Below the pieces are notes generated by a model that was given only the letters and a program-made list of their open reading frames with translations, had not been told where the DNA came from and made no database searches. A stretch of DNA of 64,000 nucleotides from NCBI GenBank assembly GCA_964291215.2, contig OZ219790.1:448001-512000 (forward strand). The letters run 5' to 3'. This stretch comes from Alphaproteobacteria bacterium (GTDB lineage Bacteria; Pseudomonadota; Alphaproteobacteria; MPNO01; UBA830). Within the stretch, counting starts at the first letter, position 1. Every line of letters starts with the position of its first letter. Of the stretch, positions 24,829 through 63,112 are shown piece by piece. Position numbers and translations under genes: made by a program.

Positions 24829-26814
24829 CCCTGCCGTGTCATGACAAATCTGGTTGACAATGGTTTACGTGTTCACGCGTGTCTTTGTCCATCCCGGAAC
24901 CCGATTTCCCGGCCGATTTGGTGACCCAGTGCGGCGCTGGTGTGTCTGGCCACATGATCTGGTGACCCGGGCGTGCTGCGGTAGCCGCCGAGATGGGCGA
25001 CCAGGTGCACCGCATCGGCGAGACGCTCCGGTTCCTTCAGGGCGTACTTGTGTGCGTAGTCGCGCGAGTTCGCTGTCGGTGAACATCAGCTGCGGCTCGC
25101 ACCTGGCGGCCGAGCAGGGTCATGACCATGATGCGCCATGCGATGACGGCGTTGATCGCCCGCTGCAGGCGGTGCGGAACAGCAGGTGTTCCACCCTGCA
25201 TCCGGATTTGAGCACGTAATCCTCGATTCGCCAGCGCTGAAGGTAGAAGCCGACGATGTCGGCCGCCTCCTTCGCCAACCCGCACGGTGGTCAGCAGGCA
25301 CCGGGATCCTCACCCTCGGGCGCTCCCTGACCCCGTGCAGGGACACCGGCTTCGCGCTGGGGGCGGTGCCCGTCACGGGTGACGGACCGTAACTCGCCAG
25401 GCGCTTCTGTCGCGCGGGCCTTCTTCCGGCTGGCTTGCTCCGTCAGTCCCTCGATCTCAATCAGGCCGCCGGCCATGACGGCGAACAGCCTTCCCTCCTT
25501 CAGCACCCTGTCATGCTTGGCGCGCAGATCGACGCGGGGCAAGCGCGTGTCGAACAGCTCGAAGATGTCGGCTTCCCGACGGAGATGACGCGCGTCTTGC
25601 CGCCGGGGTGGCAGCGCCTTGAACCCCTCGAGCTGCGGCGTGTCTCCTGCGACCGGGGCTTCACCGGACCCAGCACCCCGAGTGGCAGGTCAGTCACCGC
25701 CAGGGTCGCGTGCAGGCTTGAGGCCCCGGTCTGGTTCTCACCTGCAGGCCGTCGCAGCCGGGAGAAGTTCAGGTCCGTGCCGCAAGAACCGTCTTCTGGC
25801 CACGGATGCGCCGGATGCTGCGCTCACGGTGCGGCGCAAGAATGTTCGCCGGCGTGATCTCCGAGGGCGACCATCCGGTAAAACGCATTGATCGCGGTGT
25901 TGTCGGCGCTGGGAGACGCATTGATCTTCTGACCGGCCGCCAGAAGGCTGGCGCTCCAGGCGCGCAGAAAGTCGCTTGTCACCCCCCTCCAAACTCGTTC
26001 TGCGCCCAGTCGTTCAGACCTTCGCCCGGCGAGGGCGCATGATCGACCTCCCCAGCTTCCTGCGCGCTCCAGTTCGGCCACGAAGACCGTCTTCACCGTC
26101 TCCCAGTGCTCCCGATCCTGCCGGCCTTCGGTCCTGCACAGGAAGTTGGCTGCGCGCAGGCAGGGTAACCTTCATCGGCAAAACTGAGCCATGGTCGAAA
26201 CGGTCCTCGAAGTCACGCGGCGCAGGATGCGCACATGGCTGGGCGGGCAGAGCACCTGATCAAGAAACGGCTCAGACAGACGATCCGCTGCAGGTGGTTC
26301 CGGCGCTGCCCGTCGTTCCATCCAGCGGTCCCGCGCCGCGCGGCGGCGGCAAACCCCGCCACCCGTGCGCCGAGCCCACGAGATATTGGCAGCCGGCGAA
26401 GGTCGTCGCGGGTGTTCACGCGCAATCAGCGTGACCGCTCGGTCAATACGATCCCCGACCACGATGATCTCGAGATCCCGAATGCGCGCGCCGGAACCTC
26501 TGCAGCGATACCAACAGGCGAGGCCGGCGGTCGATTGTCGGTGACTTCGGCACCGGCAGGACGATCTCCGGGCGCCCTCAGCGCCTTCATGCAGCCGGCA
26601 AGCTGCAGACGGCCGCGCGCGTCGACAAAGGCAAACTCCTCGCAGACGACCCAGAGCCGACCGGCTGTCGAACTGCTCACAGGACAGCAGCGACGCGATC
26701 CGCGCAACTGCTGCCTCGTCCCGCAATGTGCGGCTGATCTGAGACTGTGACATGGGACACTTATGCCACGCCGAAACACCGTTGTCCAGCTAAAATTTCC
26801 GTGACATGCGAGGG
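24829..26814 (-). mobile_element. Degenerate IS4-family (Tn5/IS50-like) element with an N-terminal DUF4338/DruA domain, copy 1
   Basis: CTAG on both sides (24825-28, 26815-18); related ends CCCTGCCGTGTCATGA and CCCTCGCATGTCACGG; remnants RIVCLSRFLIR, AINAFYR, DLNFS, ADIFELF, AINAVIAWRIMVMTLLGR, HLGGY. Confidence 0.85.
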
Positions 26815-26818
26815 CTAG

Positions 26819-27022
26819 GGGCTCAGCCGGTGGGCGCCCCCGGGAGAACCGCCCGCCGCCTGAGCGCGGGACTCGCCTTCGTCTTCTTCGCGCTGGTGGT
26901 GCTCTCCGCACCCGAAAATGCGCATGCGGCCAAGACCGTCACCATATCGACCGCGTCAACCACGATCACCGAGGGCGATTCCGGCAAGAAGGATGTGACG
27001 ACCAACGTCAAGCTCGGGGAAG
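26819..27022 (+). pseudogene. Fragment of a secreted Calx-beta-like adhesin gene
   Basis: Signal-peptide-like LAFVFFALVVLSAPENAHA followed by VTISTASTTITEGDSG; cut by IS on both sides. Confidence 0.5.
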
Positions 27023-27770
27023 GTAAGCGTTCGTTCGTACGGTGAGGTGTTGCTGTTTTCGTCCGTTCGACGGGCTTTCGTCAGGGAGTTCCAGCGTCAC
27101 CTGGAGCGGTTTCGTGCGCCGCCGGGCCGGATGCGCGGTGAGGGGCACTGGTGCCATGCCGTGTTTTTCGCATTGGTTGCCGTTTGTCCCGGCGCTGCGG
27201 AGGAGGAGCTGAGCGCTATCCTGTGCCGGTTGCAGGGTTCGGCGATTGAGGGTCCGCTTCCTGTCCTTGCGAAGCGGGCAGAGCCAGATGTCCTTCTTCG
27301 GCTTGTCGGCCCTGTCATGTCGGTCGTAGCGGCCGCGCCCCTTGGTTGTTCCGACGCGGATCTGGCCCGCGGCCCGGTAGACGCCGCCGCTGTGGCGCGG
27401 GACCTCGACCAAGGTCTCACAGGGCGTGGTGTTGTAGCGCGCGGTTCAGTCTCCATGCGGCGGTCCAGAAGCCGAGCATGGCCAGCGGCTCGCCGTTCCG
27501 GTCATGGGCCGCGTAGCGGATCTGCGCGCCGACCAGGCGCGTGTATCCGAGGCAGTGTTAGCGGGCGACGAACTCGTTCCACAACCGGCCTTCCCGGGTG
27601 CCCACGATCCGGAAGTCGGCGGGCGGAGCTCGTCGAGAGTCTTCGGGGCTACGGCTCGGTGTCCGACGTGATCAGCTTCGGGGCCGGCGGGGTCCGGGCT
27701 GGCGGCGGCAGAAGGCGCGGGCGATGGCCAAACGGGTCCGCTCCGTGATCGTCACCCGTGGTGGCCTTGT
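27023..27770 (-). mobile_element. Right end plus DUF4338/DruA passenger of an IS66-family element (partial, degenerate)
   Basis: Terminus GTAAGCGTTCGTTCG; remnants GYTRLVGAQIRY, ETLVE, GGVYRAAG, VGTTKGRGRYDR, KKDIWLCPL; homologous to 41710-42171 and 62575-63112. Confidence 0.8.
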
Positions 27771-27867: not shown

Positions 27868-28942
27868 CTATGGAATCGCTTCCGAACCCATATCGGTTGG
27901 TAAGGGCTCCAAGGTCTGCACGATCTCCTCCAGAATATCGAATACCTTTTCAAAGTGCCGAAAGTCTTCGTCCGTGCCTTCGTTACGTAGCCAATCGCAG
28001 AGATTTCTTTTCTCGTCCTTATTTACACTCCAACATTCTGGAACTTCCTCTTGCCGTCCTCTAATGGTTCTGGCATGAGATGAGGCGATATCTATAAATC
28101 TCGGGTGATGTTTCCGAGCCCTCTCCAAAGTTGTCCTATCAAAAAGATTCTCGACACCTTTCTTTATGGGATGATTTTCGAAGTAAGGCATTTTCCTTTT
28201 GTAGATGCTGTCTTCCCTGTCTTCCCTGTCTTGGCTTTCCGGATCATGCAGCAAGATTATCATCTTTTCAGACAATGTGTCAACATTTGCAAGCTTTTTT
28301 AGGCTCGTCCATATCATCTTCAGATTTCCATTACCCCCAGAGCATTTAATTTCGAATTTTTCCAGGACGTCATTTTTCCCAAGGAACATTGCCGCACTCC
28401 TAAGGTAATCTCGATCTGTTTCACCTTCAACGATTATCATCAAATGTTGTGCACTTTCAACCAAATACCGAACCTCATTTGAAAATCTTGTAGTGTCCTT
28501 ATACGCCTGAAATGCTTGATCGAACTCGTCAAACTCCTCTGGAGAGATGCGAGAGCCGCTCGGAAGGTCATAGATCTCGAATCCGTCGTCTCCAAACACC
28601 TTTGCCATTCCGAGGGCAAACAACACCGAATGCGTAGTCATTACAAACTGAATTTGAGGAAACATCCGAATCAGTGTCGGGAGTATATCGTGCTGATGTC
28701 GTGAATGAAGATGCAGGTCAACCTCATCAACTACTACAATCCCTTTCACGGTTTCGATCGAAGTAAAAGGTATATTCCGCGCTTCCCTGAGGTCAAAATC
28801 CCTCAGTATGGAAAAAAACAGTGTTAACAGAGTCATCTCTCCGCTGGACAGCTGGAAGAGATTAGGGACCAATGCCTGCTGATCGTCCTCCAAGCTTATG
28901 ACTCGATTGTGTCTCCCGCCGATACCAAACCGAAGATTTTTC
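27868..28942 (-). pseudogene. C-terminal half of an ABC/AAA_21 ATPase-TOPRIM (OLD-like) protein
   Basis: LSSGE signature, VVVDEVDLHLH (Walker B), TTHS, IIVEGETD (TOPRIM); low GC. Confidence 0.85.
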
Positions 28943-29038
28943 GTAACTGCCCAGGTCTGCTTCCGGCGATCAGCCACGGGTTATGGACTGAAGCTTCCGG
29001 TCTGCTGCCGCGGACGCGGAGGCGAGCGGCGGGGGATT

Positions 29039-30430
29039 TCAGAGGCGCAGTCTCGGGATCAGCTGCATGGGATCGGGATGCGCCAGGGTTTCGAGGACAT
29101 TCCAGCGTTGCTTTCGGGCTGTTGCGATGACGGAACGCAGGCTGGCGAAGTCGCGGGCGCCTTGCATTGATCGGAAGCCGCCCGAGATTTTCTGGCGCAG
29201 CTTGCCCATGCGGAGGTCGCGCTCGGCCTGGTTGTTCGAGAAGGGGGTTCTCGGGTCGGTGAGGAAGCGCAGGCAGCCCTCCTTGTATTTCTGGAGCCGG
29301 AGGGCGAGGTTGTGACCGATGCGGCGCTTTTGTCGTCCGTGCTTTCCGCTCTGGAGGGGCGCCATCTCTTCGTGAGAGGCGATGGCCTGCTCAAGGATGC
29401 GGTCCCAGGCTCGGGAGATGCGGGCCACCAGTGAAGCGGGCAGGTCGCGGTCATTCTTGCGGGCGAAGCGGGCGGCTCTGTTGGCACGGCTGAGGAGCCG
29501 GTGCGTGGTGGCTGCCCAGTTCTCGATCTCGATCAGGGCTTGGAGTTCGCGCAGGTGATGGGCATTGCAGGCCCCGTGGCGCACGCCTTGGAGAGCGAAG
29601 TAGGTGGCGTAGTCGTCATGGATGACGATGCCGTTGAGCTTCTCGTCGATGTGGCTGCGCCCGGCGGCGATGCGCAGGATGGTCAGCAACGGGGTGCACA
29701 GTACGTGGAGCCATTGGGTCCGGGCGGCGATGCGGATGCCGGTCTCGTCGAGGTGTTTGACCGGGGCCGCGGTGCGGATGATCTCGCCGACACGGTCGAG
29801 GAAGCCCTCGAAGCGCCGGGCGGTGCGTCTGCCCATGGCGGCGATGGTGGCGGTTGAGAGCCTGACCGCGAAGAGGTCGCTCATGACTTCGGCGACGCGC
29901 TTCTCCGGAATGAACTGCGCGTGCAGCAGGTAGGTCACCCACGCGGTGATACGCGGCCCGTACTGGACCGGGGCGCCGTTCGGGAAGACGGCTGTCGTCA
30001 CGGTGCCGCAGGCGGCACAGAGGCAGCGGTGCTCGGTGACCTCAAGGGGCTGCGGCACATCGAAGACCTGCCGGCAGACGGGGGCTCGGTGACGCTCAGC
30101 GGCCGACAGCGGCGCGCCGCAGCCCGCACAGGCGCAGGGATCATGATCGACGACGTGGTCGGGCGTCGCGGTCCGCTCCAGAGTGGTTCCCTTGTGGCTG
30201 ACCGCCGCCTGTCGGACGTGCCGCTCCGGGTGCGCTGGGGTCCGCTCTTCTTCTTCAGACCGTCGCTGGCCGGCGACCGGGAGCTGGTGGTGCTGTCGAG
30301 CGCGGCACTGCGCTCGAGTTCGGCAATCCGCTCGCGCAAGTGGGCGTTCTCCCGCTCCAGCGCGTCGTTCTCCCTGACCAGCGCCGCGCTCAGGCGCAGC
30401 AGCCCCTGGCCCGGATGGCTTTGATGACCG
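29039..30430 (-). pseudogene. IS66 transposase, frameshifted in the N-terminal third
   Basis: DSTTSSRSPASD, VQYGPR, HLDETG, HDDYATY, HGACNAHHLREL, FSNNQAERDLR, KISGGFRS. Confidence 0.9.
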
Positions 30431-30512
30431 TCATCGCCAGGCATTGTGGGGTGAAAAGGTCCTGCAGGCACGCAAAAGCCTCGTCGTGGCCGGCGAGGTC
30501 CTCGCGCCACCG

Positions 30513-31172
30513 TCACGGGACCTCGACGGCCATGATCGCGGCCAGCACCGCCAGGCGTTCGCCCGCCGGCATGGCCTCGTAGAGCCGGCCCCAGTTGGCC
30601 GCCTTGCGCTTGATGCGCTGGCGGTCGGTGAAGTTCCGGCCGGCGAAGCGCGCCCAGTGCACCCGGTCGGGCGCGAAGTTGAACCACACCACCTCGGTCC
30701 GCACCCGGGCCTGGGTCGTCACCTGCAGCGCCAGCCGGCGCCAGCCCGACAGCAGGTCGTCATAGAGCGCAGACGGGTGGCCCGAGACCATCACCTGGCA
30801 GGGCAGACCCTTGAGCAGCTCAAGCAGCGCGACGTGGTCGGCCTCCGCATACTCGAAGCGGTAGCGCTGCGACGAACGCCGGGTCGCGTGCAGATAGGGC
30901 GGATCGCTGTAGACCAGCTCCGGGCCCAGAAACGCAAACGACGCCAGAAAGGAGTGGGCGCAGCCATGCACCAACTCCACCGGGTAGTCGCAGCCAAAGG
31001 CCTCAAGCGCCCGCTCATCGAGGTCGATCCCGATCGAGCGCACGGCAGCAGGCTTGCGCTTCATCAGCGCACCGCCCCCCAGGTGACTCTCGATATAGAC
31101 AGAGTGCGGCGGCATCAGCGCAATCAGCGCCTGGCTCAGACCCGTCGTCGCCTTCGATCCGAAATACCCCAC
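30513..31172 (-). CDS. D12-class (Dam-like) N6-adenine DNA methyltransferase, IS66 passenger
   Basis: YFGSK, YIESHLGGGA (SAM-binding motif), YSDPPY (catalytic), MVSG, E..W.N; open frame. Confidence 0.88.
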   Translation of the reverse strand: MGYFGSKATTGLSQALIALMPPHSVYIESHLGGGALMKRKPAAVRSIGIDLDERALEAFGCDYPVELVHGCAHSFLASFAFLGPELVYSDPPYLHATRRSSQRYRFEYAEADHVALLELLKGLPCQVMVSGHPSALYDDLLSGWRRLALQVTTQARVRTEVVWFNFAPDRVHWARFAGRNFTDRQRIKRKAANWGRLYEAMPAGERLAVLAAIMAVEVP

Positions 31173-31299
31173 CAGCCGCTCCTCCCATGCGAGAGGGCAA
31201 CCCATAGGCGCGCGCGCCTATGCAGTCAAGGCCGAGAGCAGCGACACGGCGAACAAAATCAGCAAGCTCTCACACTTGGCAGGGTACCTGGGTAGTTAC

Positions 31300-32140
31300 G
31301 ATTTTTCTTTGCCGCCAATTCTGGCATAACGGCATGCAAGATTTCCAGTACCGAATTGTACATATTTGTTGCATCGCCTTGATACCCAAGAAACAGGGGA
31401 AGCATTGCAGTTTGCTTCTGCTCCTTATCCGGAGCAGCGGGAAGGGAAATGGGAATGTTGCCCGATTGTATTTCGAAAGCTGCACGGTCATAGGCAACGT
31501 CATACAACCAATCGTGGATGTCTCGAAGCGGCGAGTGAGCGATCAATCGACGTCGAGTTTCTCCTTCCCGGCGAGAGCCTTGTGTATAATGTGGCTTGGC
31601 GCGTAGATTGTCCTTATTCAGCCAAGCTGGTTCTTCAGTACGATTGGATGGAAAATAGAGCAAACAATTTTCTGATATTATGTTTTTTACGGCCGTGATT
31701 TGTGAAGGATCCAGTATGTTAGATTTGAAGTGATCCATTTCTTCGTCATCGAAGTGAGCTTCCCAAGCATCAAACCCGGGGCTGCCGTCTGGCATCGGTG
31801 CTTGGGTATACTCTTTCCTTGGTTTTCTCAGGCGGAGTTCTTGAATAAAATATTCAGGATGAAAGTCACATCTAGCATAATAATATTCGGCCCCAACGGA
31901 GATGTAGGAGCTGCTGCGCAGCTTGAATACCCTGTCGGCATCCAATTCTCTCGATTCCAGATAAACGCTGTCCTTGGCAATCACCATGGCATTGACTATG
32001 TGGGAAAGGACTATGGTCTTGCCGGAGCCGTTTTCGCCAACAAGCAAAACGGGTTTCGGTCGATCTCCGTCGAACGGGAAGTGGAGGTCAAGATTCCGGA
32101 GCGGGCCGTAGTTTGCCAGCTGAAGCCATGTCAGGTACAT
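31300..32140 (-). pseudogene. N-terminal half of the OLD-like ATPase-TOPRIM protein
   Basis: LQLANYGP, LLVGENGSGKT (Walker A), YFPSNR; rejoins 27868..28934 in frame (AAKKN|LRFGIG), giving 635 aa. Confidence 0.88.
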
Positions 32141-35739: not shown

Positions 35740-35815
35740 GGGTACTGTAACTTGATGTCTGGAAATTTGTCTGAGGTTTGCGCTTTGAGGCGTTTCACTG
35801 GGGGGGGGGGGCTAG

Positions 35816-37798
35816 CCCTCGCATGTCACGGAAATTTTAGCTGGACAACGGTGTTTCGGCGTGGCATAAGTGTCCCATGTCACAGTCTCAGATCAGCCGC
35901 ACATTGCGGGACGAGGCAGCAGTTGCGCGGATCGCGTCGCTGCTGTCCTGTGAGCAGTTCGACAGCCGGTCGGCTCTGGGTCGTCTGCGAGGAGTTTGCC
36001 TTTGTCGACGCGCGCGGCCGTCTGCAGCTTGCCGGCTGCATGAAGGCGCTGAGGGCGCCCGGAGATCGTCCTGCCGGTGCCGAAGTCACCGACAATCGAC
36101 CGCCGGCCTCGCCTGTTGGTATCGCTGCAGAGGTTCCGGCGCGCGCATTCGGGATCTCGAGATCATCGTGGTCGGGGATCGTATTGACCGAGCGGTCACG
36201 CTGATTGCGCGTGAACACCCGCGACGACCTTCGCCGGCTGCCAATATCTCGTGGGCTCGGCGCACGGGTGGCGGGGTTTGCCGCCGCCGCGCGGCGCGGG
36301 ACCGCTGGATGGAACGACGGGCAGCGCCGGAACCACCTGCAGCGGATCGTCTGTCTGAGCCGTTTCTTGATCAGGTGCTCTGCCCGCCCAGCCATGTGCG
36401 CATCCTGCGCCGCGTGACTTCGAGGACCGTTTCGACCATGGCTCAGTTTTGCCGATGAAGGTTACCCTGCCTGCGCGCGGCCAACTTCCTGTGCAGGACC
36501 GAAGGCCGGCAGGATCGGGAGCACTGGGAGACGGTGAAGACGGTCTTCGTGGCCGAACTGGAGCGCGCAGGAAGCTGGGGAGGTCGATCATGCGCCCTCG
36601 CCGGGCGAAGGTCTGAACGACTGGGCGCAGAACGAGTTTGGAGGGGGGTGACAAGCGACTTTCTGCGCGCCTGGAGCGCCGGCCTTCTGGCGGCCGGTCA
36701 GAAGATCAATGCGTCTCCCAGCGCCGACAACACCGCGATCAATGCGTTTTACCGGATGGTCGCCCTCGGAGATCACGCCGGCGAACATTCTTGCGCCGCA
36801 CCGTGAGCGCAGCATCCGGCGCATCCGTGGCCAGAAGACGGTTCTTGCGGCACGGACCTGAACTTCTCCCGGCTGCGACGGCCTGCAGGTGAGAACCAGA
36901 CCGGGGCCTCAAGCCTGCACCTGCACGCGACCCTGGCGGTGACTGACCTGCCACTCGGGGTGCTGGGTCCGGTGAAGCCCCGGTCGCAGGAGACACGCCG
37001 CAGCTCGAGGGGTTCAAGGCGCTGCCACCCCGGCGGCAAGACGCGCGTCATCTCCGTCGGGAAGCCGACATCTTCGAGCTGTTCGACACGCGCTTGCCCC
37101 GCGTCGATCTGCGCGCCAAGCATGACAGGGTGCTGAAGGAGGGAAGGCTGTTCGCCGTCATGGCCGGCGGCCTGATTGAGATCGAGGGACTGACGGAGCA
37201 AGCCAGCCGGAAGAAGGCCCGCGCGACAGAAGCGCCTGGCGAGTTGCGGTCCGTCACCCGTGACGGGCACCGCCCCCAGCGCGAAGCCGGTGTCCCTGCA
37301 CGGGGTCAGGGAGCGCCCGAGGGTGAGGATCCCGTGGTGCCTGCTGACCACCGTGCGGGTCGGCGAAGGAGGCGGCCGACATCGTCGGCTTCTACCTTCA
37401 GCGCTGGCGAATCGAGGATTACGTGCTCAAATCCGGATGCAGGGTGGAACACCTTCTGTTCCGCACCGGCTGCAGCGGGCGATCAACGCCGTCATCGCGC
37501 ATCATGACCCTGCTCGGCCGCCAGGTGCGAGCCGCAGCTGATGTTCACCGACAGCGAACTCGCGCGACTACGCACACAAGTACGCCCTGAAGGAACCGGA
37601 GCGTCTCGCCGATGCGGTGCACCTGGTCGCCCATCTCGGCGGCTACCGCAGCACGCCCGGGTCACCAGATCATGTGGCCAGACACACCAGCGCCGCACTG
37701 GGTCACCAAATCGGCCGGGAAATCGGGTTCCGGGATGGACAAAGACACGCGTGAACACGTAAACCATTGTCAACCAGATTTGTCATGACACGGCAGGG
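35816..37798 (+). mobile_element. Degenerate IS4-family / DUF4338 element, copy 2 (inverted relative to copy 1)
   Basis: Near-identical reverse complement of 24829-26814; CTAG at 35812-15 and 37799-802. Confidence 0.9.
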
Positions 37799-37869
37799 CT
37801 AGCCCCCCAGTGAAACGCGGCGCCATCGTGCTATCCCATGGAGCTGTAAAACATTCATGGAGGAAGCGA

Positions 37870-38947
37870 ATGGACCTGCGACACACTACGACGATCGAGG
37901 CCGTTTTGGAACATCTGATCGCAAACGGAGCAACGGATCTGGGGCGGATCTTTGGTCAGCTCTTCGAGCTTGCGATGCAAATCGAGCGCGAGCAGTACTT
38001 GAAAGCGGGCCACCGGACACCGGAACGACAGGGCTATGCCAACGGCTACAAGCGGATCGACACCCCCACTGTTACCGTTCAAGTGCCAAAGACGGCCGGT
38101 CACGGGGACGACCCCCCCAGTCGCTTGAACGCGGCCAGCGATCTTCTCGCGCCGTCATGCTGGCTGTAGCCGAGATGTACATCAAGGGTGTTTCCACGCG
38201 GCAAGATGTAATGCGCGAGTTCGGGAGCCTGTCCTCTTCTCAGGTCAGCCGGGCCACCAGGTTGCTCGATGAAGAACTCGCCGCGCAACCGGCCCCTGAT
38301 GAAATACCTGATCCTGGATGCGCGCTACGAAAAAGCCCGCCATGACGGCGTTGTGCGCGATGTTGCAGTGCTCTCGGCCATCGGAATAGGGGCTGCAGGC
38401 ACGTTCTGGGGCTCTCTGTGGCGCTCTCCGAGGCCGAGGTCCATTGGAGAGCCTTCCTGGAAAGCTTGCTAGCCCTGCATGGTACGACCTTCATCGTCTC
38501 GGATGCCGGGCTGAAAGCGGCACGACGCGCGGTGCTGGGCGCGGCGACATGGCAGCGCTGCCAATTCCACCTGGCACAAAACGCCGTGCACCGAACAACG
38601 ACATCAGGAAACGTATTGGAAAACAGCTCGGAGCCACGCCTCCTCACTCCAAGCCGCCGAGGCTGAACTGGGCGCCCTCGTGGCCAGCTATCGCGACAAG
38701 CATCCAGGCTTCCTGGCTGGAAAACAATGCGGGGCTCGCTGTCTTCACCTTGCCCGATGCTCACCACAAGCGTATGCGAACCTCGAACGGCATCGAGCGA
38801 CCGATCCAGCAAGAGCTCAAGCGGCGCACCTCCAAAGTCAGGGTCTTTCCGAACCTCGCCTCGTTGGAGCGCCTCTCAACCGCGGTCCTCATCGACGAAA
38901 AATGGGAAACCGAAACCAAGATCAAATGGGAACAGCTCGATGACTGA
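37870..38947 (+). pseudogene. IS256 transposase, multiply frameshifted
   Basis: GYANGYK, EMYIKGVSTR, YLILDARYEK, SEAEVHW, WQRCQFHL, RTSNGIER. Confidence 0.9.
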
Positions 38948-38987
38948 CAGCTTCACGACAATTTCCAGACATCAGGTTGCGTAATCC

Positions 38988-41709: not shown

Positions 41710-42171
41710 CCATGACCTCCGCCCCCACATCCTCTCGCTCGTCCGCAAGCGGCTGCCCGGGAACTGGACCGCGCGCTACGGCAACACGCCCGTGCTCTGC
41801 GAGACCTTGGTCGAGGTCTCGCGCCGCGGCGTCTGCCGGGCCGCGGGCCGGATCCGCGTCGGAACAACCAGGGCGCGCGGCCGCCACGACCGACACAACA
41901 GAAGCCGAAGAAGGACATCTGGCCCGCTCCACAAGGACTGGAAGCGGACCCTCAATCGCTGAACCCTGCAACCGGCACAGGATGGCGCTCAGCTCCTCCT
42001 CCGCAGCGTTGGGACAAAACGCAACCAATGCCGAAAACACGGCATGGCGCCAGTGCCCCTCACCGCGCATCACGGTGCACGAAACCGCTCCGGGTGACGC
42101 TGGAACTCCCTGACAAAAGCCCGTCAAACGGACGAAAACAACAACACCTCACCGCACGAACGAACGCTTAC
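41710..42171 (+). mobile_element. DUF4338/DruA 3' part plus IS66 right end (partial copy)
   Basis: HILSL...RYGNTPVLCETLV..VCRAAG.IRVGTT; ends CGAACGAACGCTTAC. Confidence 0.8.
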
Positions 42172-51281: not shown

Positions 51282-51303
51282 AGAATACTCCGTATCGTCG
51301 ATG

Positions 51304-51753: not shown

Positions 51754-52065
51754 GGGGCCTTCATCCCGGATCTCTCGACACAGCGCGATCCTGTCTCGCG
51801 GATCGGTTGCCGACACCAAATATCATATCACCATAGCATGGTACTACAAGGTATAGCAAGGTTCCCGGTTTTTACGGAGAGACACCCGCGAACCCGCCGC
51901 GCCAATGCCGGGACTTCGGTCCGACGCCGGACTGTTGCGGTCCGGGAACGGCGGCCTTTGCAAAACGGCATGCGGAGCCCTATATTCAATGCAACGATCT
52001 CACGCCGCCCGACACTCGGCGCCGCATCCGGGTTCGGGCTCCGGGAGGGGAAAAAGGAGCGAACG

Positions 52066-53481: not shown

Positions 53482-53652
53482 AACCCGGATCGGCGAAAGC
53501 CGCCTTGCCGGCAACGGACGAATTTTCGGCATGCCCTGTCGACCGACGGGATGCGACAAGGTGAATATCCGACCGCCGCCGGGGCACGGAGAACATTTCA
53601 GGCGAGAGATGCGCACAAGGCAGTGCAGAAAGCAATGCCGGATTGCGTGGAG

Positions 53653-54174
53653 ATGACCATTCCCACGATACATGGGACCGTCGCCGTGGTCGGCGACTAC
53701 GTCTCGGGCGATGTCATACTGCCTGGCCGCCATGCCTTTCTCGATACCGAAGGAATGGCGGCGCATGTGCTTGAGGAACTCAACGACACGGCCAACGCCT
53801 GCGTCCGCGCCGCCTCCGTCCTCGTCGCCGGAACCGCCTTCGGCTACGGGACCGGACGGGAATCGTCAGCGCGCGCGCTCCGCGCGGCCGGCATAAGGGC
53901 TGTCATCGGCGGCCCCTTCGCCCGAATGTTCTACCGCAACGCGATCAACAACGGCCTCCTGGTTCTGGACTGCCCCGCACTCGTCGAGCAGGGCGTTGAA
54001 GACGGCTCGGCGATCGAGATCGACCCTGCTTCGGGCCGGGTGCGCTGCGAGGGCCGCGAACACGCGATACCGGCAGTGCCTGACCTGATCGGCGCCATCG
54101 TTTCGGCAGGCAACCTCGTCGAATACGGGCGCCGCCTCCTGTCTTCCGAGGCCGGGGAGACTGCGCATGGCTGA
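53653..54174 (+). CDS. LeuD/HacB-like aconitase-family small subunit
   Basis: GDYVSGDVILP, FGYGTGRES, FARMFYRNAINNG. Confidence 0.88.
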   Translation: MTIPTIHGTVAVVGDYVSGDVILPGRHAFLDTEGMAAHVLEELNDTANACVRAASVLVAGTAFGYGTGRESSARALRAAGIRAVIGGPFARMFYRNAINNGLLVLDCPALVEQGVEDGSAIEIDPASGRVRCEGREHAIPAVPDLIGAIVSAGNLVEYGRRLLSSEAGETAHG

Positions 54175-55468: not shown

Positions 55469-55484
55469 TCGTCGGACGCACAGC

Positions 55485-56084
55485 CTATCGATTTACGTTT
55501 TCCGCGTAGAAGGCTGACGGCAGGTTGTCCTTGGGCCAGTCGTCGCCGTTCTCGAACGGAGCGACGCCGACGGCATGGCGCGCCATGCCCGACTCGAGCA
55601 TCGCCATCGAGACGATCTCTGCGATTCCGATGTCGTCTATGCCGTGGTCGCGCAGTGCCTGGAAGTCGCCGTCCTCCGTACCCTCGTTGAACGCCACCTT
55701 GCGCGCGAAGCGAAGGACATCCTTCCACATCGGCTCCAGCGTCGAGGAATTCTCGAAATCTATGCACTCCATCACATCGTCGGCCGTCATCTGGAAATGC
55801 TCGATGAGATGGGTCTGGTGGTTGTTGATGCAGCGCGGACAATCAACCTCCGCCGCACAGACCAGAGAAATGGCATTGAGCAATGGCTTGGGCAGCGAGC
55901 CGGGAGTCATCTGCAGCCGCTTCGTGAGCGTCCACCATCCCTTAAGAAGGTCGATGTCGAGAGCAAAGAACCCCCAAGTCGGCGTCAAGAAATTGGCACC
56001 TTTCGTGGCTCGGATGTCATCGAAGATCTCCGCAACTTCGTCATCGGCAAGATCCGGCCGAATCAGCTTCACCTTGTCCATCAT
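55485..56084 (-). CDS. AhpD/carboxymuconolactone-decarboxylase-family protein
   Basis: CPRCINNH (CxxC..H), LRDHG..D..IAEI. Confidence 0.8.
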   Translation of the reverse strand: MMDKVKLIRPDLADDEVAEIFDDIRATKGANFLTPTWGFFALDIDLLKGWWTLTKRLQMTPGSLPKPLLNAISLVCAAEVDCPRCINNHQTHLIEHFQMTADDVMECIDFENSSTLEPMWKDVLRFARKVAFNEGTEDGDFQALRDHGIDDIGIAEIVSMAMLESGMARHAVGVAPFENGDDWPKDNLPSAFYAENVNR

Positions 56085-56518
56085 CCGTCATGCCGTCTCC
56101 CCGGTCGACGAGTCGTCACGGTCACGGACCGTCTCGCCGGCCTTTCGACGCTGCATCTCCCTGCCAGCGGCGGTTTGCCTCGGGTCGGCGCCGGGCGCTG
56201 GCTGCCGACGCCTCAATCGCTTAGCTGCCTGGAGATCCGGGGTCAAGCTGGAGCCTGCTCGCCGGGCCCGTCAGAAGCCGGTACGACCTGACAAGTCCCC
56301 GTGCTTGCAATGGCCCGTTTCTTCGTTTCTGGAAAATGGAGGCAACAACCCGCAACAGAACCGAAATTCGCCTTCGTGACCGATTTCCAAGCGGTTGTCT
56401 GCTACTGCCTGTGGTGCTAGCCTTGTCTGCGGCAAACAGGCTGCCCCCACATGCATGCCAAGCCATCGGGCGCCTGCACCGAATCCGTTTTCGCAATACC
56501 TTCAGGAAGCAGACCAAC

Positions 56519-57538
56519 ATGAATAGCATTACACGCCGTCATGCCCTCGGCACCATCAGCGCCGCAACAGCGATATCCGCTGCCGGCCTGCCCGCACATG
56601 CGGCCACCAAGACCAAGGTGGGAGCATTGCGCTTCACCAGCCATGCGGCGAGTTTCGTGGCCTATGAGCGTGGATACTTCAAGGAGGCGGGACTCGATGT
56701 CGAGTTCCGGTTCTTCCAGGCTGCCCAGCCCATGGCGGTAGCGATCGCTTCGGGAGATGTCGACTATGGCGTCACCGCGATCTCGGGCGGGCTCATCAGC
56801 CTTGCCGAGAAGGGGGCCGCGAAGGTGATCGGCGGCGCGCTTAGCGAGGAAAAGGGCATAGACGGCCAGATGATTCTTGCTTCCAACGCTGCCCATGCTG
56901 CAGGGCTGACGTCGCCGGCCCAGCTCAAGGGCAAGCTCTACGGTATGACCACAGCGGGTTCGTCGTTCCACTACATGGCTTCGAAGATTGCCAGCGCCGA
57001 GGGCTTCCCCGGCGGGATCAGGATGAAACCGCTCCAGAAGGTGGGGGCGATCATTGGCGCGCTAAAATCGGGCCAGATCGATGCCTGGTCGATCGTACCG
57101 CATATCGCCAAGGCGCTTGCCGGCGGCGGCGCCGTGAAGCCGATCGGCGTGATTGCGGATTACATTCCGGACTACCAGGTAACCACCGTGTTCACCTCGG
57201 CCAATACCGCTGCCAAGGAGAGGGCCAAGACCAAGGCATTCCTTGCCGCGTTCTCCAAGGGCGCCGATGACTTCAATGCGGCACTGGTCGACAAGACTGC
57301 GGGCGCAGACGCCGCCGAGGCCATGGTCAAGCTCATCCACAAATACGTCTACGCCGACCGTCCTTATGCCAAGGCCGCACCGTCGATCCGCAACGGCGCC
57401 ATGCGCATCAATAAAGGCGCCGCGTTGAGGACGGGTTCGGTCTCCGACCAGCTCGAATGGTTCAAGTCCGAAAAACTGGTCAAGGCCGGGATCACGATGG
57501 ACACGCTCGTCGATCCGTCTTACGTCAAGTCGATCTGA
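56519..57538 (+). CDS. NitT/TauT-family ABC substrate-binding protein with Tat signal
   Basis: ITRRHALG; A.ERGYF.E.GLDVE, G.T..GS, LKSGQIDA. Confidence 0.9.
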   Translation: MNSITRRHALGTISAATAISAAGLPAHAATKTKVGALRFTSHAASFVAYERGYFKEAGLDVEFRFFQAAQPMAVAIASGDVDYGVTAISGGLISLAEKGAAKVIGGALSEEKGIDGQMILASNAAHAAGLTSPAQLKGKLYGMTTAGSSFHYMASKIASAEGFPGGIRMKPLQKVGAIIGALKSGQIDAWSIVPHIAKALAGGGAVKPIGVIADYIPDYQVTTVFTSANTAAKERAKTKAFLAAFSKGADDFNAALVDKTAGADAAEAMVKLIHKYVYADRPYAKAAPSIRNGAMRINKGAALRTGSVSDQLEWFKSEKLVKAGITMDTLVDPSYVKSI

Positions 57539-57588
57539 ACAGGCATTCCGGCCGGGGTGGCAGCACCCCCACCCTGGCCGGAAACTCC

Positions 57589-58356
57589 ATGGACCTCGTT
57601 CTCGACCGGATCAGCCACAGCTATGGCGACACCGAGGTTCTACGCGGCATCTCCCTGACGATCAGAGCCGGCCAGATCGTTTGCATCATAGGGCCGTCCG
57701 GCTGCGGCAAATCGACATTGCTGCGAATCATAGGTGGGCTTGAGCAGCCGGGTAGCGGCAAGGTCCTGCAGGAAGGCGCGCCGCCGGCCGATAGCCTCAA
57801 TCCGCTGACCTACGTATTCCAGGACTTCGCGCTCCTGCCGTGGCGCACCGCCGGCGGCAATGTCAGCCTGGCGCTGGAAGACCATGGCCTTGCGCGCGAA
57901 CGCAGAGAAGCCGTCATCTCGGATGTGCTGCAACGCACCCGCCTCAGCGAGTTTCGCGACGCGCTACCACGGCAACTTTCCGGGGGCATGAAACAACGCG
58001 TGGCAATCGCCCGAGCCCTGGCGGTCAACCCGGCAGTGATGCTCCTCGACGAACCGCTCTCGGCGCTCGACGCCCAGACCCGTGAACTGCTCCTGGACGA
58101 CCTGATTGGCCTGTGGTCGCGCCAGCCGTTCACCGCAGTCTACATCACCCACAATCTCGGCGAGGCCGTGCGTCTTGGCCACCGCATCGTCGTTCTCTCG
58201 CGCCGTCCCGGAGTAATCCGGGAGGTGATCGAAATCGATCGCCCGATAGACGGGCGCGGCATTGCGGACGCCGAGCTCGAAGACCTTCAGAAACACCTCT
58301 GGACGCTGATTCGCGACGAGGCCGCTGCCGCTGACAAGCAACTCGTCCATGGCTGA
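57589..58356 (+). CDS. NitT/TauT-family ABC ATP-binding protein
   Basis: GPSGCGKST, LSGGMKQR, LLDEP, ITH. Confidence 0.95.
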   Translation: MDLVLDRISHSYGDTEVLRGISLTIRAGQIVCIIGPSGCGKSTLLRIIGGLEQPGSGKVLQEGAPPADSLNPLTYVFQDFALLPWRTAGGNVSLALEDHGLARERREAVISDVLQRTRLSEFRDALPRQLSGGMKQRVAIARALAVNPAVMLLDEPLSALDAQTRELLLDDLIGLWSRQPFTAVYITHNLGEAVRLGHRIVVLSRRPGVIREVIEIDRPIDGRGIADAELEDLQKHLWTLIRDEAAAADKQLVHG

Positions 58357-59173
58357 AATCAGATCAGTGGCCGAGCGTTCCGACACGACGCGGTCGACGG
58401 TACAGTTCCGCGGCGGCGGATTCGCGCCACAGCGGCTCGGCTGGATAGGCCCGATCGTGTTCGTTTCCCTGATCGCGCTCGTCGAAGCCGGAACGTGGAC
58501 CGGCATCATTTCCAAGCTGACCCTGCCACGACCGTCCGCGGTGTTCGAAACGTTCGGCGACCTTTGGAACACGGGACTGCTCTGGAAACACCTGGTCCCA
58601 TCGGTCACGCGCCTCGTCGTCGGCGGCGTGGCCGGCGCCTCCGCCGGCATCGCTATCGGAATTCTCATCGGCCTGTTCACGTTTATCCGTGCAGGCCTTG
58701 TGCCGCTGGTCGCTGCCATCTTCCCGATACCGAAGATTGCGCTCCTGCCACTGTTCGTGATCTGGTTCGGGATCGACGAAGGATCGAAATACGCTCTGAT
58801 CGCGTTCGGGACCTTCACACCGACCGTGGTTGCAACCTACGGCGCCGTCGACAATGTCGACCGCGGGTTGATCCGCATGGGTCAGAGCTTCGGCCTGACG
58901 TGGCTTTCAATCGTGCGCAAGATCGTGCTGCCGGGCGCCCTTCCCGGCATTCTGTCCGGTCTTCGCGTCTCGCTGGCAATCGCGATCATCCTGCTCGTCG
59001 CCGCCGAGATGCTGGGCGCCGAATACGGGGTCGGCGCCTACATCCTCGAAGCCGGTGCACTCTTCGATCTCGAACGGCTCTTCGCCGGAGTGACGATCCT
59101 CTCGATTCTCGGCGTAACGGTGAGTTACATGGTCGGACGGCTTGAGAAGAGACTCCTGAACTGGAGGAGTTGA
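58349..59173 (+). CDS. NitT/TauT-family ABC permease
   Basis: LP.PS.V, PIPKIALLP..WFG, LPGALP, VAAEM. Confidence 0.93.
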   Translation: MAEIRSVAERSDTTRSTVQFRGGGFAPQRLGWIGPIVFVSLIALVEAGTWTGIISKLTLPRPSAVFETFGDLWNTGLLWKHLVPSVTRLVVGGVAGASAGIAIGILIGLFTFIRAGLVPLVAAIFPIPKIALLPLFVIWFGIDEGSKYALIAFGTFTPTVVATYGAVDNVDRGLIRMGQSFGLTWLSIVRKIVLPGALPGILSGLRVSLAIAIILLVAAEMLGAEYGVGAYILEAGALFDLERLFAGVTILSILGVTVSYMVGRLEKRLLNWRS

Positions 59174-59210: not shown

Positions 59211-60972
59211 CCGAAGTTCCAAAAAATTCCGGCTGAAATGCACGTCAAGTCATTGATGCAGCGTGGTTTATCGGATTTTTCGTGCGTCAGACTGTGCCCA
59301 TGTAATATTGTGTTGGATGCTCGACATCCATGGATCTGTCGCCTATATGCAGTAGTCATCTATATCGAATCCATCCCCAACCGCTCGTCCCCGCCCGCCA
59401 TCCTGCTCCGCGAGTCCTGTCGCGAAGCCGGAACGGTCAAGAAGCGCACCCTCGCCAACCTTTCCAGGTGGTCGCCCGCTCTCATCGAGGGATTGCGCAT
59501 TCTGCTCAAGAAAGGAACCGCAGGTCTCGACGACGCCTTTGACCTCGTCCGCTCTCTTCCCCATGGTCATGTGGCCGCGGTGCTGGGAACCCTGAAGAAA
59601 CTGGACCGGCGGATCGATCCGAAGCCCTCGCGCGATCAGGTGCTGGCCATGATCGTGGCACGCATCCTTGAGCCCGCCTCGAAGCTGGCCAGGAGGCTGG
59701 CGACAGCGGTCAGCACCTTGGGTGAGCTCCTTGATGCGGAGTTGGACGAGAATGTCCTCTACGGCGCCGGCTCCTGGAACGTCAGGAGAAGATCGAGCGG
59801 TCCCTGGCGAAGCGGCACCTCGAAGAGGGCTGCTTGGTGCTCCTGACTTCCGTGTGGATGGAGGGGAGAGCGTGTCCCCTGGCCAAACGGGGTCATCCCC
59901 GGGATGGCAAGAAGGGCAAGCTGCAGTCGGCCTTCTGTGTGATCGGGACGGGTGTCGGTGGAAGTGTTCCCCGGCAACACGGCGGACCCGGCGACGCTGT
60001 CCTCGCAGGTCGCCACGCTGCAGGAACTGTTCTCCCTTGCGAAGGTGGTGGGGCATCGGGGGACCGAGGCCCGCGAGGAGGTGAAGCCTGCGGGCCTGGA
60101 TCAGCGCCTTGATGAGGACCGGCCATCCGTTCACTGGTGGAGGCCGGCGACATCGAGATGTCGCTCTTCGACGAGAGAGACCTTGTGGAGATCACCAGCG
60201 ATGCGTATCCCGGCGAGCGCCTCTGCCGCAACCCCCTGCTGGCCGAGGACCGGGCCCGCGGGACCTGCTCGAGGCCACCGAGGCTCGCACCGATTGCCGC
60301 AGCGACACGGCGCGACAAGCGCCGGAAAGATCGGGGAGCGGGTCGGCAAGGTCGGTACAAGATGGCGAAGCACTTCACGTGGTCCATCGACGATGACGGT
60401 GTCTTCACCTATGGGCGCGATGAGGCTGCGCTCGCCGCCGAGGCTCCTCCACGTGATCCGCCTGCCGCAGAGCGAGCTCGACGGTCCCGGCACGGTGCGC
60501 GCCTGAAAGCGGCTGAGTTCCGTGGAACGAGCCTTCCGCAGCCTCAAGGACCTGAAGGTGCGTCCCGTCTACCCGAGCCCCGGGCCCACGTCTTCCTGTG
60601 CATGCTCGCCTACTACATGGCACATGCGACTGAAGCCCCTGCTGTTCGACGACGAGGATGCCGAAGGCGGCCGTCCGTCGTGGCGCCGGCAGAGGTCTCG
60701 GCGAGCGCCCGGGCCACGGCGGCAACCGGAAGGACGCCCGGGGGTGGCACAGCTTCCGTACCTTCATCGATGATCTCGCGACCATCACCCGCAACACCGT
60801 GGCGCCCCGCCTTGCGGGCGCCGAACCCTTCCAGGTCACCACGCGGCCCACGCCGCTCCAGAGAAGGGCATTCAAGCTCCTGGGCGTGAAGCCATAGTGT
60901 ACCCAGACCGCTGAAATGTATCGAATGTCATTTCTATCAGATACTTAGGTCTGATCGGCTCTGGAACTTCGG
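59211..60972 (+). mobile_element. Degenerate IS1634-family element
   Basis: Inverted ends CCGAAGTTCCA and TGGAACTTCGG; YIESIPNRSSPPAILLRES, PHGHV, VFPGNTAD, ERAFRSLK, HVFLCMLAYY in shifting frames. Confidence 0.9.
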
Positions 60973-60974
60973 AC

Positions 60975-63112
60975 GTAAGCGTTCGTTCATGCGGTGATGA
61001 CGATCTGCGCTGAGGTTTGTTTTGGTAATTCGGAGAAGGAGTCTGGTAAATTTTTTTTGGCGGTGCCATCAGATGGTCATGTGCATCAAGGATTCGTGTC
61101 ATCATCGGGTGCGGACGCCGCTGGCGACATGCCGCAGTCGTCGTGTCGTGATTCGGCCATCTGGAAGTCCCTGTACGATCGCGAGCGTATTCGAGTCGAG
61201 GCGGCGGAAGCCCGCACGGCGGCTGCGGAGGGTCGCTGTGAGAGGAGCTGCGCTTGCAGGAGGTGGAGGAGCGCAGCCGCGCGAATTCCCTGAAGGCGAT
61301 TTTCGAGAGCAATCGCAAGAAGCTGTCAGCTGCCCGTGCGGAGGTCAGGGAAGTTCGGCGGACGGCGAAGCAGTCTCTTGCGCTGAAGCATGAGGTTGCA
61401 CGTCCGGGCCAGCTTCTTGCCGAGGCCGGCGCGCGGAAGCGGTCGAAGGTGGTATCGCTGCGCATGAAGAATGCCAGCCTGAAGACCGCGATGAAGGTTC
61501 TGAAGGGTCGGGGCGGAGAACGACAAGCTTCGTTCGAACAGGTCGTCGATGTACGGGCGCAAGAGCGAGAAGAGGCAGCGGGCGCCATCGAAGCGCGGCC
61601 GACGCTCGAGGAGGTGGCGGAGGACGCCTGCTCGTGCTGCGTTGCCAACGGTTCGCACCAGGATCATCGAGATCAAAAGCGGCGGATTGTCCGCCGGGGC
61701 TGTGACTGCCCCGGTTCACCGAGCGAGGCGGCTGTTTCCCAGCACCGCATTCGGGTGTGGACGCATGTGCTGCACGAGCGCGTGCATGCGGCCCTTGCGC
61801 CGCGTCCAGGGGCTTTCGCCGGGAACGCTGGCCAGCGAGCCGGATGCTGCCCCTGTTCGAGCCGCTTCGGGACGCGATCCTCGCGCACCGGGGTTTGCGC
61901 CATGCCGATGCATCCAGGCCTCGAGGGAGGTCCGGAAATCGCGCCTGGCTCCGGACATCGGTCAGCCGTGACGCAGCCCTCTCCCTCGCGCAGCGCCGAG
62001 GTCGCGGCGAAGCTGTTCGCGGACGCCCCCATGTATCCGGTCTGCGGCCGCTACAACCCCTGCAAGAAGCTGGCGCGCCTGTGGTCCTTCATCATCCTGT
62101 GCTGTTGCCGGGCGCATTGTCGGCGCGACTTTCCGGACTGCGCCGGCCGCAGCTGGAGGGGTGGGCGGACGAACGGGTCGATCGCGGAGGTCTGCCGCCT
62201 GAACACGGCTCGACTGCCTTGCTTCCGGCGGCGTTCGAGGCGGCGCGGGCGGTGCCGGAGACCCCGGTCGCTGTTTGCGGAAGCGCCGAGGCTTCCGAAA
62301 GCGGCGCCGGAAGGCAGGCCGCTGCGCTCAACCATCGCGTGTTCGTCGACCATGGACAACAATTTCGGGGAAAGGGCTGTCAGGGGGCCCGGCCAACGGG
62401 CGGAAGCCCGGCTTCGGTTCCGACAGCATGGACGGCTGTCATGTACACGGCACGGTCGCGAAGAGCGGCCTCGACGTTCTGCGCTGGCGCCTGCGCGGAG
62501 AACGGCGGCCCGGCGATCTGTCGCCCTGGTTGCCGTGAGCCCGGAGAGGCGGCGGAGATTCGCGGCGCCGCCGTGAGGTCGAGGGCGCGACTTCATGGCC
62601 GCGCAGTGCTACGACGACCACGGAGCGGACCCCATCGCCCGCGCCTTCTGCCGCCGCCGGCCCCGAAGCTGATCACACCGCCGCCCCGAAGACCCTCGAC
62701 GAGCTCCGCCCGCTGATACTACCTCGGATACACGCGCCTGGTCGGCGCGCAGATACGCTAGGCGGTCCATGCGGTGAGCCGCTGCTTCTCGACCGCCGCA
62801 TGGACCGCGCGCTGCAACACCCCGCCCGTGCCCTGCGAGACCCTGGTCGAGGTCCCGCGCCGCGGCGTCTGTCGGATCCGCGTCGGAACAACCAGCGGCC
62901 GCTACGACCGACATGACAGAAGCCGAAGAAGGACATCTGGCCCGCTCCGCAAGGACTGGAAGCGGACCCTCAGATCCCTGCAACCGGCACAGGATCGCGC
63001 TCAGCTCCTCCTCCGCAGCGCCGGGACAAAACCGCAACCAATGCGGAAAACACGGCATGGCGCCAGTGCCCCTCACCGCGCATCCCGGTACACGAAACCG
63101 CTCCGGATGACG
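60975..63112 (+). mobile_element. Degenerate IS66-family element: transposase plus DUF4338/DruA passenger
   Basis: Left end GTAAGCGTTCGTTC; MYGRKSEK, HAD, C.AH.RRDF, MDNN..ER..RGP remnants, then YLGYTRLVGAQIR, CETLV, VGTT; right end cut off by IS630. Confidence 0.85.

Follow-up and report, generated by a model that had tools for sequence, protein, structure and literature searches.

DUF4338 remnants in the window

The window, the whole stretch of 64,000 nucleotides analysed here (Alphaproteobacteria bacterium, contig OZ219790.1), contains five DUF4338/DruA stretches, all of which are dead copies of IS4/Tn5-type and IS66 insertion sequences (Table 1). Deletions of 5-8 nt have inactivated all five, frame shifts recur in every one, and none encodes a protein. 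Two belong to a single IS4 family. For these the original description, that the domain is N-terminal to a Tn5-like IS4 transposase, was exact in arrangement and coordinates, and CTAG flanks both elements. The copy on the (-) strand is a single gene for a helical N-domain, a Mom-like GNAT and a Tn5-type transposase, and its frame is broken by many deletions of 5-8 nt. Positions 2-316 of profile A2 are covered piecewise and in several frames within its N-terminal part. Contigs of sequencing runs X1 and X2 pass over this element at its CTAG site. An assembly artefact was rejected for 24822-26107, checked for this copy alone, as the X1 contig agrees with 2 substitutions and 0 gaps. The second IS4 copy is inserted at the CTAG midpoint of a perfect palindrome, close to the left end of an IS256-like element.

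The other three stretches had been described as passengers inside IS66 ends. This holds for 60975-63112, in which a left end, a TnpC remnant (PF03050 match at 61254-62576) and the domain follow one another up to a truncation by an IS630-like element at 63112. The remaining two are right ends only. TnpC is absent from both, and the stub at 27023 has no left end either, so that a single IS66 remnant of the three retains transposase sequence. The central part of the GNAT gene (profile about 171-206 or more) is missing from all three, and serine 207 (profile) is also missing from the remnants at 27023 and 62540. The sequence motifs listed for the domain do occur, but as a list pooled across copies: RFLI is confined to the two IS4 copies, and the IS66 remnants contribute nothing from the central part.

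Table 1. Coordinates of the features in the window. Positions are those of the 64,000-nucleotide stretch.
Feature	Position	Strand	Remarks
Dead IS4 (IS50/Tn5-type) element	24829..26814	(-)	1,986 bp; imperfect terminal inverted repeats
CTAG target duplication	24825..24828	(.)	partner copy 26815-26818
N-domain + GNAT (DUF4338) part of fused gene	25950..26753 (bounds approximate)	(-)	frameshifted
IS66 family B right end	27023..27770	(-)	GNAT gene internally deleted; profile 109-170 and 222-293 remain
Separate young IS66 without GNAT	28943..31300 (ends approximate)	(-)	upstream Dam-like methyltransferase ORF 30513-31205
IS256-like host element	35740..38987 (ends approximate)	(+)	receives the IS4 copy 35816..37798
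Second dead IS4 copy	35816..37798	(+)	1,983 bp; 98.8% identity to the 24829..26814 copy; CTAG duplication 35812-35815 and 37799-37802
IS66 family B right end	41710..42171	(+)	last third of GNAT gene (profile 207-293)
Decayed IS66 family B element	60975..63112	(+)	left end 60975; TnpC remnant about 61150-62540; GNAT remnant 62537-62971

A Pfam scan of the window ORFs gave no PF14236 match, and in a six-frame search of the genome with PF14236 only 27444-27593 scored within the window (21.5 bits, below the cut-off). For the window copies the domain identity thus depends on intact paralogues at other sites of the genome. Profiles derived from such intact relatives match all five stretches, the best pieces scoring 94 and 65 bits in the two IS4 elements and 103, 81 and 32 bits in the three IS66 remnants, and find 0 domains in 200 shuffled stretches. 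The observation of five copies is confirmed. Reconstruction of an intact element from the copies had been suggested. Neither the majority nor the union consensus of the 14 copies of the IS4 family contained a full ORF (longest 205 and 322 aa, respectively), and intact paralogues served as the reference instead. A neighbouring IS66 with a methyltransferase is present as described; its ORF is Dam-like by a weak TIGR00571 match (E 1.6e-5, under the cut-off).

Element families carrying the domain

The genome contains about 210 DUF4338 loci, in IS4, ISAs1 and IS66 elements, a few of which are intact. An intact IS4 paralogue (C2:1643624-1646005) matches PF14236, PF14706, PF01609, PF02281 and NF033590, the last with 280 bits against a cut-off of 160, and likewise carries a CTAG duplication. 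In the family found in the window, 12 of 14 near-full copies have imperfect repeats and CTAG on both sides (the other two lack the left end), and one palindrome is the site of 13 of the 14, a strong target preference. A search of 10 relatives turned up nothing close to the IS4 element of the window. The intact relatives resemble the IS50/Tn5 group (PDB 4dm0, 1mus; NF033590) in fold (E 1e-26), in the conserved catalytic D396 and E630, and in the Y-2-R-3-E-6-K signature, which is kept in at least 90% of 109 intact IS4-clade relatives. They differ in about 300 extra N-terminal residues and in the CTAG duplication of 4 bp, whereas that of IS50 is 9 bp; the window copies are, in addition, dead.

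Among the IS66 copies of this genome, one of the 12 checked has an exact 8-bp duplication and another has one with 1 mismatch. In the dead IS66 family the GNAT gene decays as fast as TnpC (19-26 versus 20-29 deletions per kb). Several GNAT genes of the genome remain open next to dead transposases. The GNAT was rejected as the cause of the 5-7 nt deletions, as GNAT-free IS families have an identical deletion spectrum. A recent swap of the module between the IS4 and IS66 families of the window was also rejected, since their proteins share 31% identity and form separate clades (SH-aLRT 99 each) in a quick, unrooted tree with weak deep branches.

Linkage of the domain to transposases

Recruitment by unrelated insertion sequence families is real and wider than the two families originally recognised. 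IS66 TnpC lies directly upstream of the GNAT gene in 76 of 76 loci (28 genomes), a sample drawn from the best 80 of 593 matches in which loci are not independent. In 73 of the 76 the TnpC stop is within 11 nt of the matched GNAT start. These elements have the GTAAGCG-type ends, the 8-bp duplication and the TnpC of the single-ORF IS66 type (NF033517) and differ from it in the fixed downstream GNAT gene, whose start overlaps the TnpC stop. Inverted ends with the duplication were found in 13 of 16 inspected elements of relatives, and TnpC is 630-890 aa long, with an NF033517 score of 285 bits in the intact relative L016. In IS4 and ISAs1 the GNAT and the transposase form one fused protein, and 119 of 120 listed relatives of the IS4 N-terminal part have Tn5 domains. 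It is also found C-terminal to IS66 transposases, N-terminal to IS630 and to another DDE type, and, in other IS66 lineages, upstream of the transposase or fused to it. In a phylum sample, 15 of 28 fetched PF14236 loci had a transposase fused or as a same-strand neighbour.

The IS66 and IS4 forms have an extra helical N-domain (residues 1-70, predicted with pLDDT 80-93), which is absent from the ISAs1 fusions. The intact elements examined contain the transposase and the GNAT gene and nothing else. A guide RNA downstream of the GNAT gene is unlikely, as the right end lies 20-35 nt past its stop in many intact elements. A search of a phage collection found no relative.

Median dN/dS is 0.23 for the GNAT gene and 0.45 for TnpC (250 non-independent pairs), and among 12 copies in one genome pN/pS is 0.20 versus 0.42. 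The GNAT gene is therefore under stronger purifying selection than TnpC. In these elements the module is a constant component, which purifying selection maintains and which travels with several unrelated transposases.

Fold and relationship to Mom

In predicted structures the domain has the GNAT fold; all 28 rows listed by Foldseek are GNATs or GNAT-containing complexes. The models support Mom of phage Mu (PMC13219725) as its closest characterised relative, and the separation of Mom from ordinary GNATs is not clear-cut. A structure search of 48,161 chains placed Mom (8bv8) first, with Z 10.2, 168 aligned residues, rmsd 4.4 and 15% identity; it is tied with other GNATs, and 16 further rows lie within 1 Z. 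Mom was the top GNAT for the model of the IS4 fusion (E 7.5e-5). For the stand-alone model it ranked 6 by Foldseek, and in a further comparison it ranked 2. The fold suspected from the sequence is borne out. At the sequence level, phrog_1384 ("Mom-like") was the sole PHROG match (34 of 55 diverse members), and profile-profile comparison with Mom gave 13% probability and E 0.002. A sequence search of solved structures gave no match to Mom, and PF25680, the Mom family, had no match anywhere in the genome, the best relative reaching 25.9 bits against a cut-off of 27.1.

The motif G-x-x-Y-x-A-x-[NG]-[WF], proposed to resemble Mom-like GNATs, aligns with Mom 156-164, and its form G-x-x-Y-x-A-x-N-F is shared with Mom by the IS66 and diverse sets. 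In the diverse set of 55, equivalents of Mom H58, R111, S124 and Y159 occur in 54, 55, 53 and 51 members (the register of R111 being taken from strand position), and the position of D149 is acidic in 47. Of the active-site residues H58, Y59, R111, S124, D149, R151 and Y159, the IS66 clade appears to keep six and the IS4 clade four, the assignment of R151 being doubtful. The IS4 clade has proline at Y59 (108 of 109), tyrosine at Y159 in 0 of 109, and no equivalent of R151; putative equivalents of H58, R111, S124 and D149 are common ground with Mom. Module and Mom are both basic (median pI of the module proteins 10.3-10.4), and both lack the CoA-binding glycine motif: Q/R-x-x-G-x-G/A occurs in 0 of 114, 0 of 109 and 3 of 55 sequences of three sets. 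Unlike Mom, the module is carried by insertion sequences, has the extra helical N-domain and has only a short basic loop in place of the HTH-like insertion 175-209, which is essential in Mom.

Mom has been described as potentially lethal, yet in one relative at least 24 of the 30 copies read have a GNAT gene free of interruptions, an observation that speaks against a Mom-like activity.

Relationship to Druantia and DndF

The domain had been equated with DruA of Druantia, which overstates the relationship. Both belong to PF14236, and the module is a distant subfamily of about 290 aa with a different N-domain and no druBCDE context. PADLOC DruA models (PDLC00001/2) match module proteins with E 8e-7 (26 bits) at best and leave two of six unmatched. 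In the reverse comparison, the IS-type profile gives DruA-like proteins no more than 17-19 bits. Type I Druantia is defined, in PMC7251935, by druA in druABCDE beside the DUF1998 helicase druE. No DruE-type gene was found near the PF14236 loci of this genome, whose only PF09369 (DUF1998) gene is 28.5 kb from the nearest PF14236 match.

Discussion

The novelty is limited, and the original view of an undescribed system went too far. Iyer, Tahiliani, Rao and Aravind reportedly linked Mom-like proteins to diverse bacterial transposase families in 2009, and their abstract is said to propose, as a computational prediction, DNA modification by mobile elements as a general strategy. Our literature search, whose coverage did not extend to the Iyer papers on Mom and related reviews, found no paper joining DUF4338 with transposases. 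The assignment of DUF4338 to GNATs is published: in PMC10853773, the DUF4338 fused to DndF, to which the module is related as a distant subfamily of the same Pfam family, is read as a protein-targeting GNAT.

We tentatively favour the reading that the GNAT-fold, Mom-related protein of the intact relatives modifies DNA adenines and thereby helps the element to spread. The protein is basic and, like Mom, lacks a CoA-binding glycine motif, so nucleic-acid binding is likely and a charged tRNA is a possible donor of the acyl group. Since the partner transposases are unrelated and DNA is what they share, DNA would be the simplest target. By analogy with the role of Mom in Mu, the foremost benefit may be that DNA carrying the element escapes restriction on entering a new host. 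The gene would be expressed at a low level, in step with the transposase. Weighing against this reading are the overlap of Mom with ordinary GNATs, the missing HTH-like insertion and IS4-clade residues, the many uninterrupted GNAT genes of one relative, and the equal decay of the GNAT gene and TnpC in the dead IS66 family of this genome.

Control of transposition, through modification that marks the ends, donor site or intermediates of the element, seems unlikely to us. Dam methylation gates IS10 and IS50 in a comparable way, almost every context read shows the GNAT fused or translationally coupled to its transposase, and the well-predicted helical N-domain of the IS66 and IS4 forms could supply site binding. 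Against this, the ISAs1 fusions have no such domain, the GNAT core is common to IS66, IS4 and ISAs1 despite their unrelated ends, and most members of these families transpose without the module.

A similarly low probability is given to a helper of target capture or complex assembly, which could be a basic, non-catalytic module that binds nucleic acid or an enzyme that acylates the transposase or a host protein. The IS4 clade's lack of counterparts to Y59, R151 and Y159, the site preference of the window's IS4 family and the protein target proposed for the DndF domain are consistent with it. The near-invariant His, Arg and Ser at Mom active-site positions, at a mean column identity of 38%, speak against it, and the unrelated folds of the partner transposases make a protein contact common to all of them improbable.

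Less probable again is a cargo gene for a toxin or abortive-defence effector, which would acylate tRNA or protein and be kept through host benefit or addiction. It would fit the distant DUF4338 relatives in the defence proteins of Druantia type I and DndF, and the open GNAT genes beside dead transposases in this genome. Distinct disrupting changes in one relative number 4 in the GNAT and up to 21 in TnpC, but this gap is weak evidence: about 2:1 is expected from length, insertions split another three GNATs, and intactness was the criterion by which the intact copies had been picked. The two-gene content of the intact elements leaves no room for an antitoxin. An origin of the copies from Druantia DruA, or as a neutral passenger acquired by chance, is very improbable, as the match to a Pfam family now named DruA is set against the weak scores, the distant DUF1998 gene, a purifying selection stronger than that on the transposase, and an element anatomy that largely refutes it.

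A broader form of DNA modification by the elements is conceivable, and we hold it with some doubt: at least five unrelated transposase families may share an interchangeable, tRNA-dependent DNA hypermodifier that writes a not-yet-seen base into bacterial chromosomes. Hypermodification writers would then exist as a large family outside phages, and transposon equipment would account for much of the DruA in databases. At 50% identity the family has 10,178 representatives, IS-linked and other.

The dead copies in the window add little beyond the spread of the module within one genome. Many PF14236 "DruA" calls in environmental genomes are already to be read as markers of insertion sequences and not of Druantia defence. 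The prediction attributed to the 2009 work can be tested directly on the intact IS66 elements with their two genes and on the IS4 fusion with its single gene. An active enzyme would mean that simple insertion sequences alter the chemistry of host DNA. Restriction barriers, gene transfer and sensitivity to phages would then be affected, and the family would be a source of many new DNA-labelling enzymes.

Copies in the window

A selected GNAT gene related to Mom, the DNA-modifying enzyme of phage Mu, is a built-in component of several unrelated insertion sequences. The five DUF4338 (PF14236) stretches of the window lie where the original prediction placed them, and each matches profiles from intact relatives (0 domains in 200 shuffles), but none of the five is intact. 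Two are copies of an IS4 element, 98.8% identical to one another, which has 14 near-full copies in the 6.15-Mb genome. The two window copies differ mainly by 5-8 nt indels shared as a mosaic, and where they were compared with intact proteins the longer allele is ancestral. A contig of an independent sequencing run (X1) is ungapped over 24822-26107, and the damage is therefore real in that stretch. Contigs of X1 and of a second run, X2, also join across the element at 24825-26818, skipping it. One contig of a third run, X3, has a less deleted, longer IS4 allele (1,293 vs 1,210 nt). The flanks of 24825-26818 are a repeat of very high depth.

The other three stretches belong to one IS66-type family with dozens of copies in the genome, and all three lack the middle of the GNAT domain. 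They had been described as passengers inside IS66 ends; this holds for 60975-63112, which retains the left end and a transposase remnant, whereas 27023-27770 and 41710-42171 are right-end stubs.

Features of the window
Feature	Position	Strand	Remarks
IS4 copy 1	24829-26814	-	CTAG duplications on both sides
IS4 copy 2	35816-37798	+	CTAG duplications on both sides
Parts of CTAG palindrome	35795-35815; 37799-37815
Young IS66 with Dam-like methyltransferase ORF	28943-31300		Inserted in AAA ATPase gene (27868-28977 and 31259-32140)
Remnants related to this IS66	35062-35302; 63767-64000
Three tandem tyrosine recombinase genes	4400-8097		Flanked by 52-bp inverted repeats; 57% GC; presumably an RIT element
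Block resembling a mobile element	1-24700		Toprim protein, RadC, DUF2201, several long Pfam-less ORFs, strawberry-notch helicase of 1,579 aa that includes a methyltransferase domain
HipA-like gene and HTH partner	42174-43732; 44447		Flanking IS66 right-end stubs face away
Gene cluster	51088-59173		Aconitase-family pair, NMT1-type ABC transporter, radical-SAM-like ORF

Indels in the older IS families of the genome peak at 5-7 nt (mode 6) and number 4.5-13 per kb; substitutions outnumber them only slightly in the IS4 family. Examples in the window lie at 24829-26814, 37830-38960, 59812-60970 and 63115-63765. Microhomology at the indels is modest (mean 1.9 vs 0.7 nt), and no Ku gene was found in this genome. 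Thirteen of the 14 IS4 copies, in both orientations, touch a perfect palindrome with a central CTAG inside an IS256-like element. The genome has 62 empty copies of this palindrome among 2,569 CTAG sites, and the association reflects either target preference or amplification within the host element.

Intact relatives

The genome contains 41 PF14236 matches and 223 tblastn loci, including 12 short singletons that are probably noise. An open 772-aa fusion combines DruA, Tnp_DNA_bind, DDE_Tnp_1 and Dimer_Tnp_Tn5 (NF033590), ISAs1 transposases (NF033564) bear other copies of the domain as fusions, and genes of about 290 aa stand alone; three IS families of this genome therefore carry the domain. 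Tn5 domains are present in 119 of 120 relatives of the fusion type, among those listed. For the stand-alone type, IS66 TnpC lies immediately upstream in all 76 related loci (28 genomes; drawn from the best 80 of 593 matches, 19 from one genome), and its stop is at most 11 nt from the matched GNAT start in 73. Inverted ends and an 8-bp duplication were identified in 13 of 16 IS66-GNAT elements inspected. The genome also has four miniature elements of 125 bp whose ends are of IS66 type (C2:689186-689310, 1513852-1513976, 1861932-1862056 and 2232999-2233123).

Over 250 non-independent pairs from 35 distinct elements, the passenger has a lower median dN/dS (0.23) than TnpC (0.45), and pN/pS among 12 copies within one genome is 0.20 versus 0.42, both tests taking only copies with the two genes open. 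Thirty copies in a related genome have 4 distinct disrupting changes in the passenger versus up to 21 in TnpC; three more passengers are split by insertions. In the dead family of the window's genome the two genes decay equally. Open GNAT genes at C2:3177607-3178584, C1:780133-781122, C2:527975-528955 and C1:536488-537576 adjoin a truncated, frameshifted or missing TnpC; host retention is possible at these loci, which were chosen because intact.

Similarity to Mom

AlphaFold2 models (mean pLDDT 78 and 81) have a GNAT core and, N-terminal to it, a helical domain some 70 residues long. Structure searches agree with the predicted GNAT fold and Mom likeness: Mom (8bv8) ranks first of 48,161, tied, in VIA-align (Z 10.2, 168 aligned, rmsd 4.4) and sixth in Foldseek, with a query TM-score of 0.37, the highest among the matches listed. 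Mom is also the top GNAT for the fusion model, and "Mom-like" is the sole PHROG matched (34 of 55 diverse members). The profile alignment with Mom is weak (probability 13%), yet colinear across 155 columns.

Of the Mom residues tested in PMC13219725, four persist in all clades: His, Ser, an acidic residue and, in a register set by strand position, Arg. The IS66 clade also retains both Mom tyrosines, which the window's IS4 clade lacks. Like Mom, the DUF4338 proteins have no CoA-binding glycine motif. The HTH-like insertion, essential in Mom, is missing from them. On the best reading the DUF4338 protein would work like Mom, but membership tests did not place it in the Mom family.

Possible function

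The GNAT protein is a putative nucleic-acid binder that may draw its acyl group from charged tRNA and would likely acylate adenine in DNA. Restriction protection during transfer is the first-ranked putative role, held tentatively. Control of transposition through putative marking is rather unlikely, as is a non-catalytic or protein-directed helper, and a toxin or defence cargo is improbable. The original equation with DruA of Druantia is overstated: the protein is not part of Druantia, and a Druantia remnant is highly improbable. The methyltransferase-bearing IS66, cited earlier in support, is a real, young element (8 other near-full, non-identical copies; 2.2 substitutions per kb), but its methyltransferase assignment is weak; by analogy only, it would fit the idea of DNA-modifying cargo. 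The original observation is real and was correctly seen, and its guess at function is probably correct, but the copies here are dead and the function is putative.

Distribution and precedents

In a phylum sample the domain matches 23 of 400 genomes. Among 28 loci examined out of 34 matches, 15 have the domain either fused to a gene of transposase type or next to one in the same orientation: ISAs1 (6), Tn5 (3), IS66 (3), the transposase family UPF0236 (2) and another DDE type (1). The rest comprise 2 with an opposite-strand transposase, 5 longer transposase-free proteins and 6 without assigned context. Further fusions place the domain on the C-terminus of IS66 and with IS630. The profile has 10,178 representatives at 50% identity, and its distribution among relatives is patchy (3/4 in the genus vs 0/20 others in the family). 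IS66-downstream, ISAs1 and window-type IS4 domains form separate clades in a quick, unrooted tree with weak deep branches. A full-length DruA-like protein (401 aa; L093:1333-2535) is encoded immediately 3' of a TniQ gene. Another protein, P0107, matches 79% of the stand-alone GNAT at 85% identity and is labeled as from an archaeal Cenarchaeum bin, reflecting either cross-domain transfer or mis-binning.

In the passages available, DUF4338 is named as a GNAT (PMC10853773), DruA-like folds are reported in phages (Phold preprint), and momylation systems are described in bacterial genomes (PMC7824862, there citing Iyer 2009 and 2013); those of PMC7261163, PMC4738411 and the 2026 Druantia preprint hold nothing on a DUF4338-transposase link. 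Our literature search found no paper joining DUF4338 to transposases. The elements themselves are members of the IS4 and IS66 families. Iyer et al. (2009) reportedly connect, in their abstract, Mom-like proteins with diverse bacterial transposase families. A Mom-type gene in insertion sequences was thus likely predicted earlier, and the present finding is a further case of that predicted kind.
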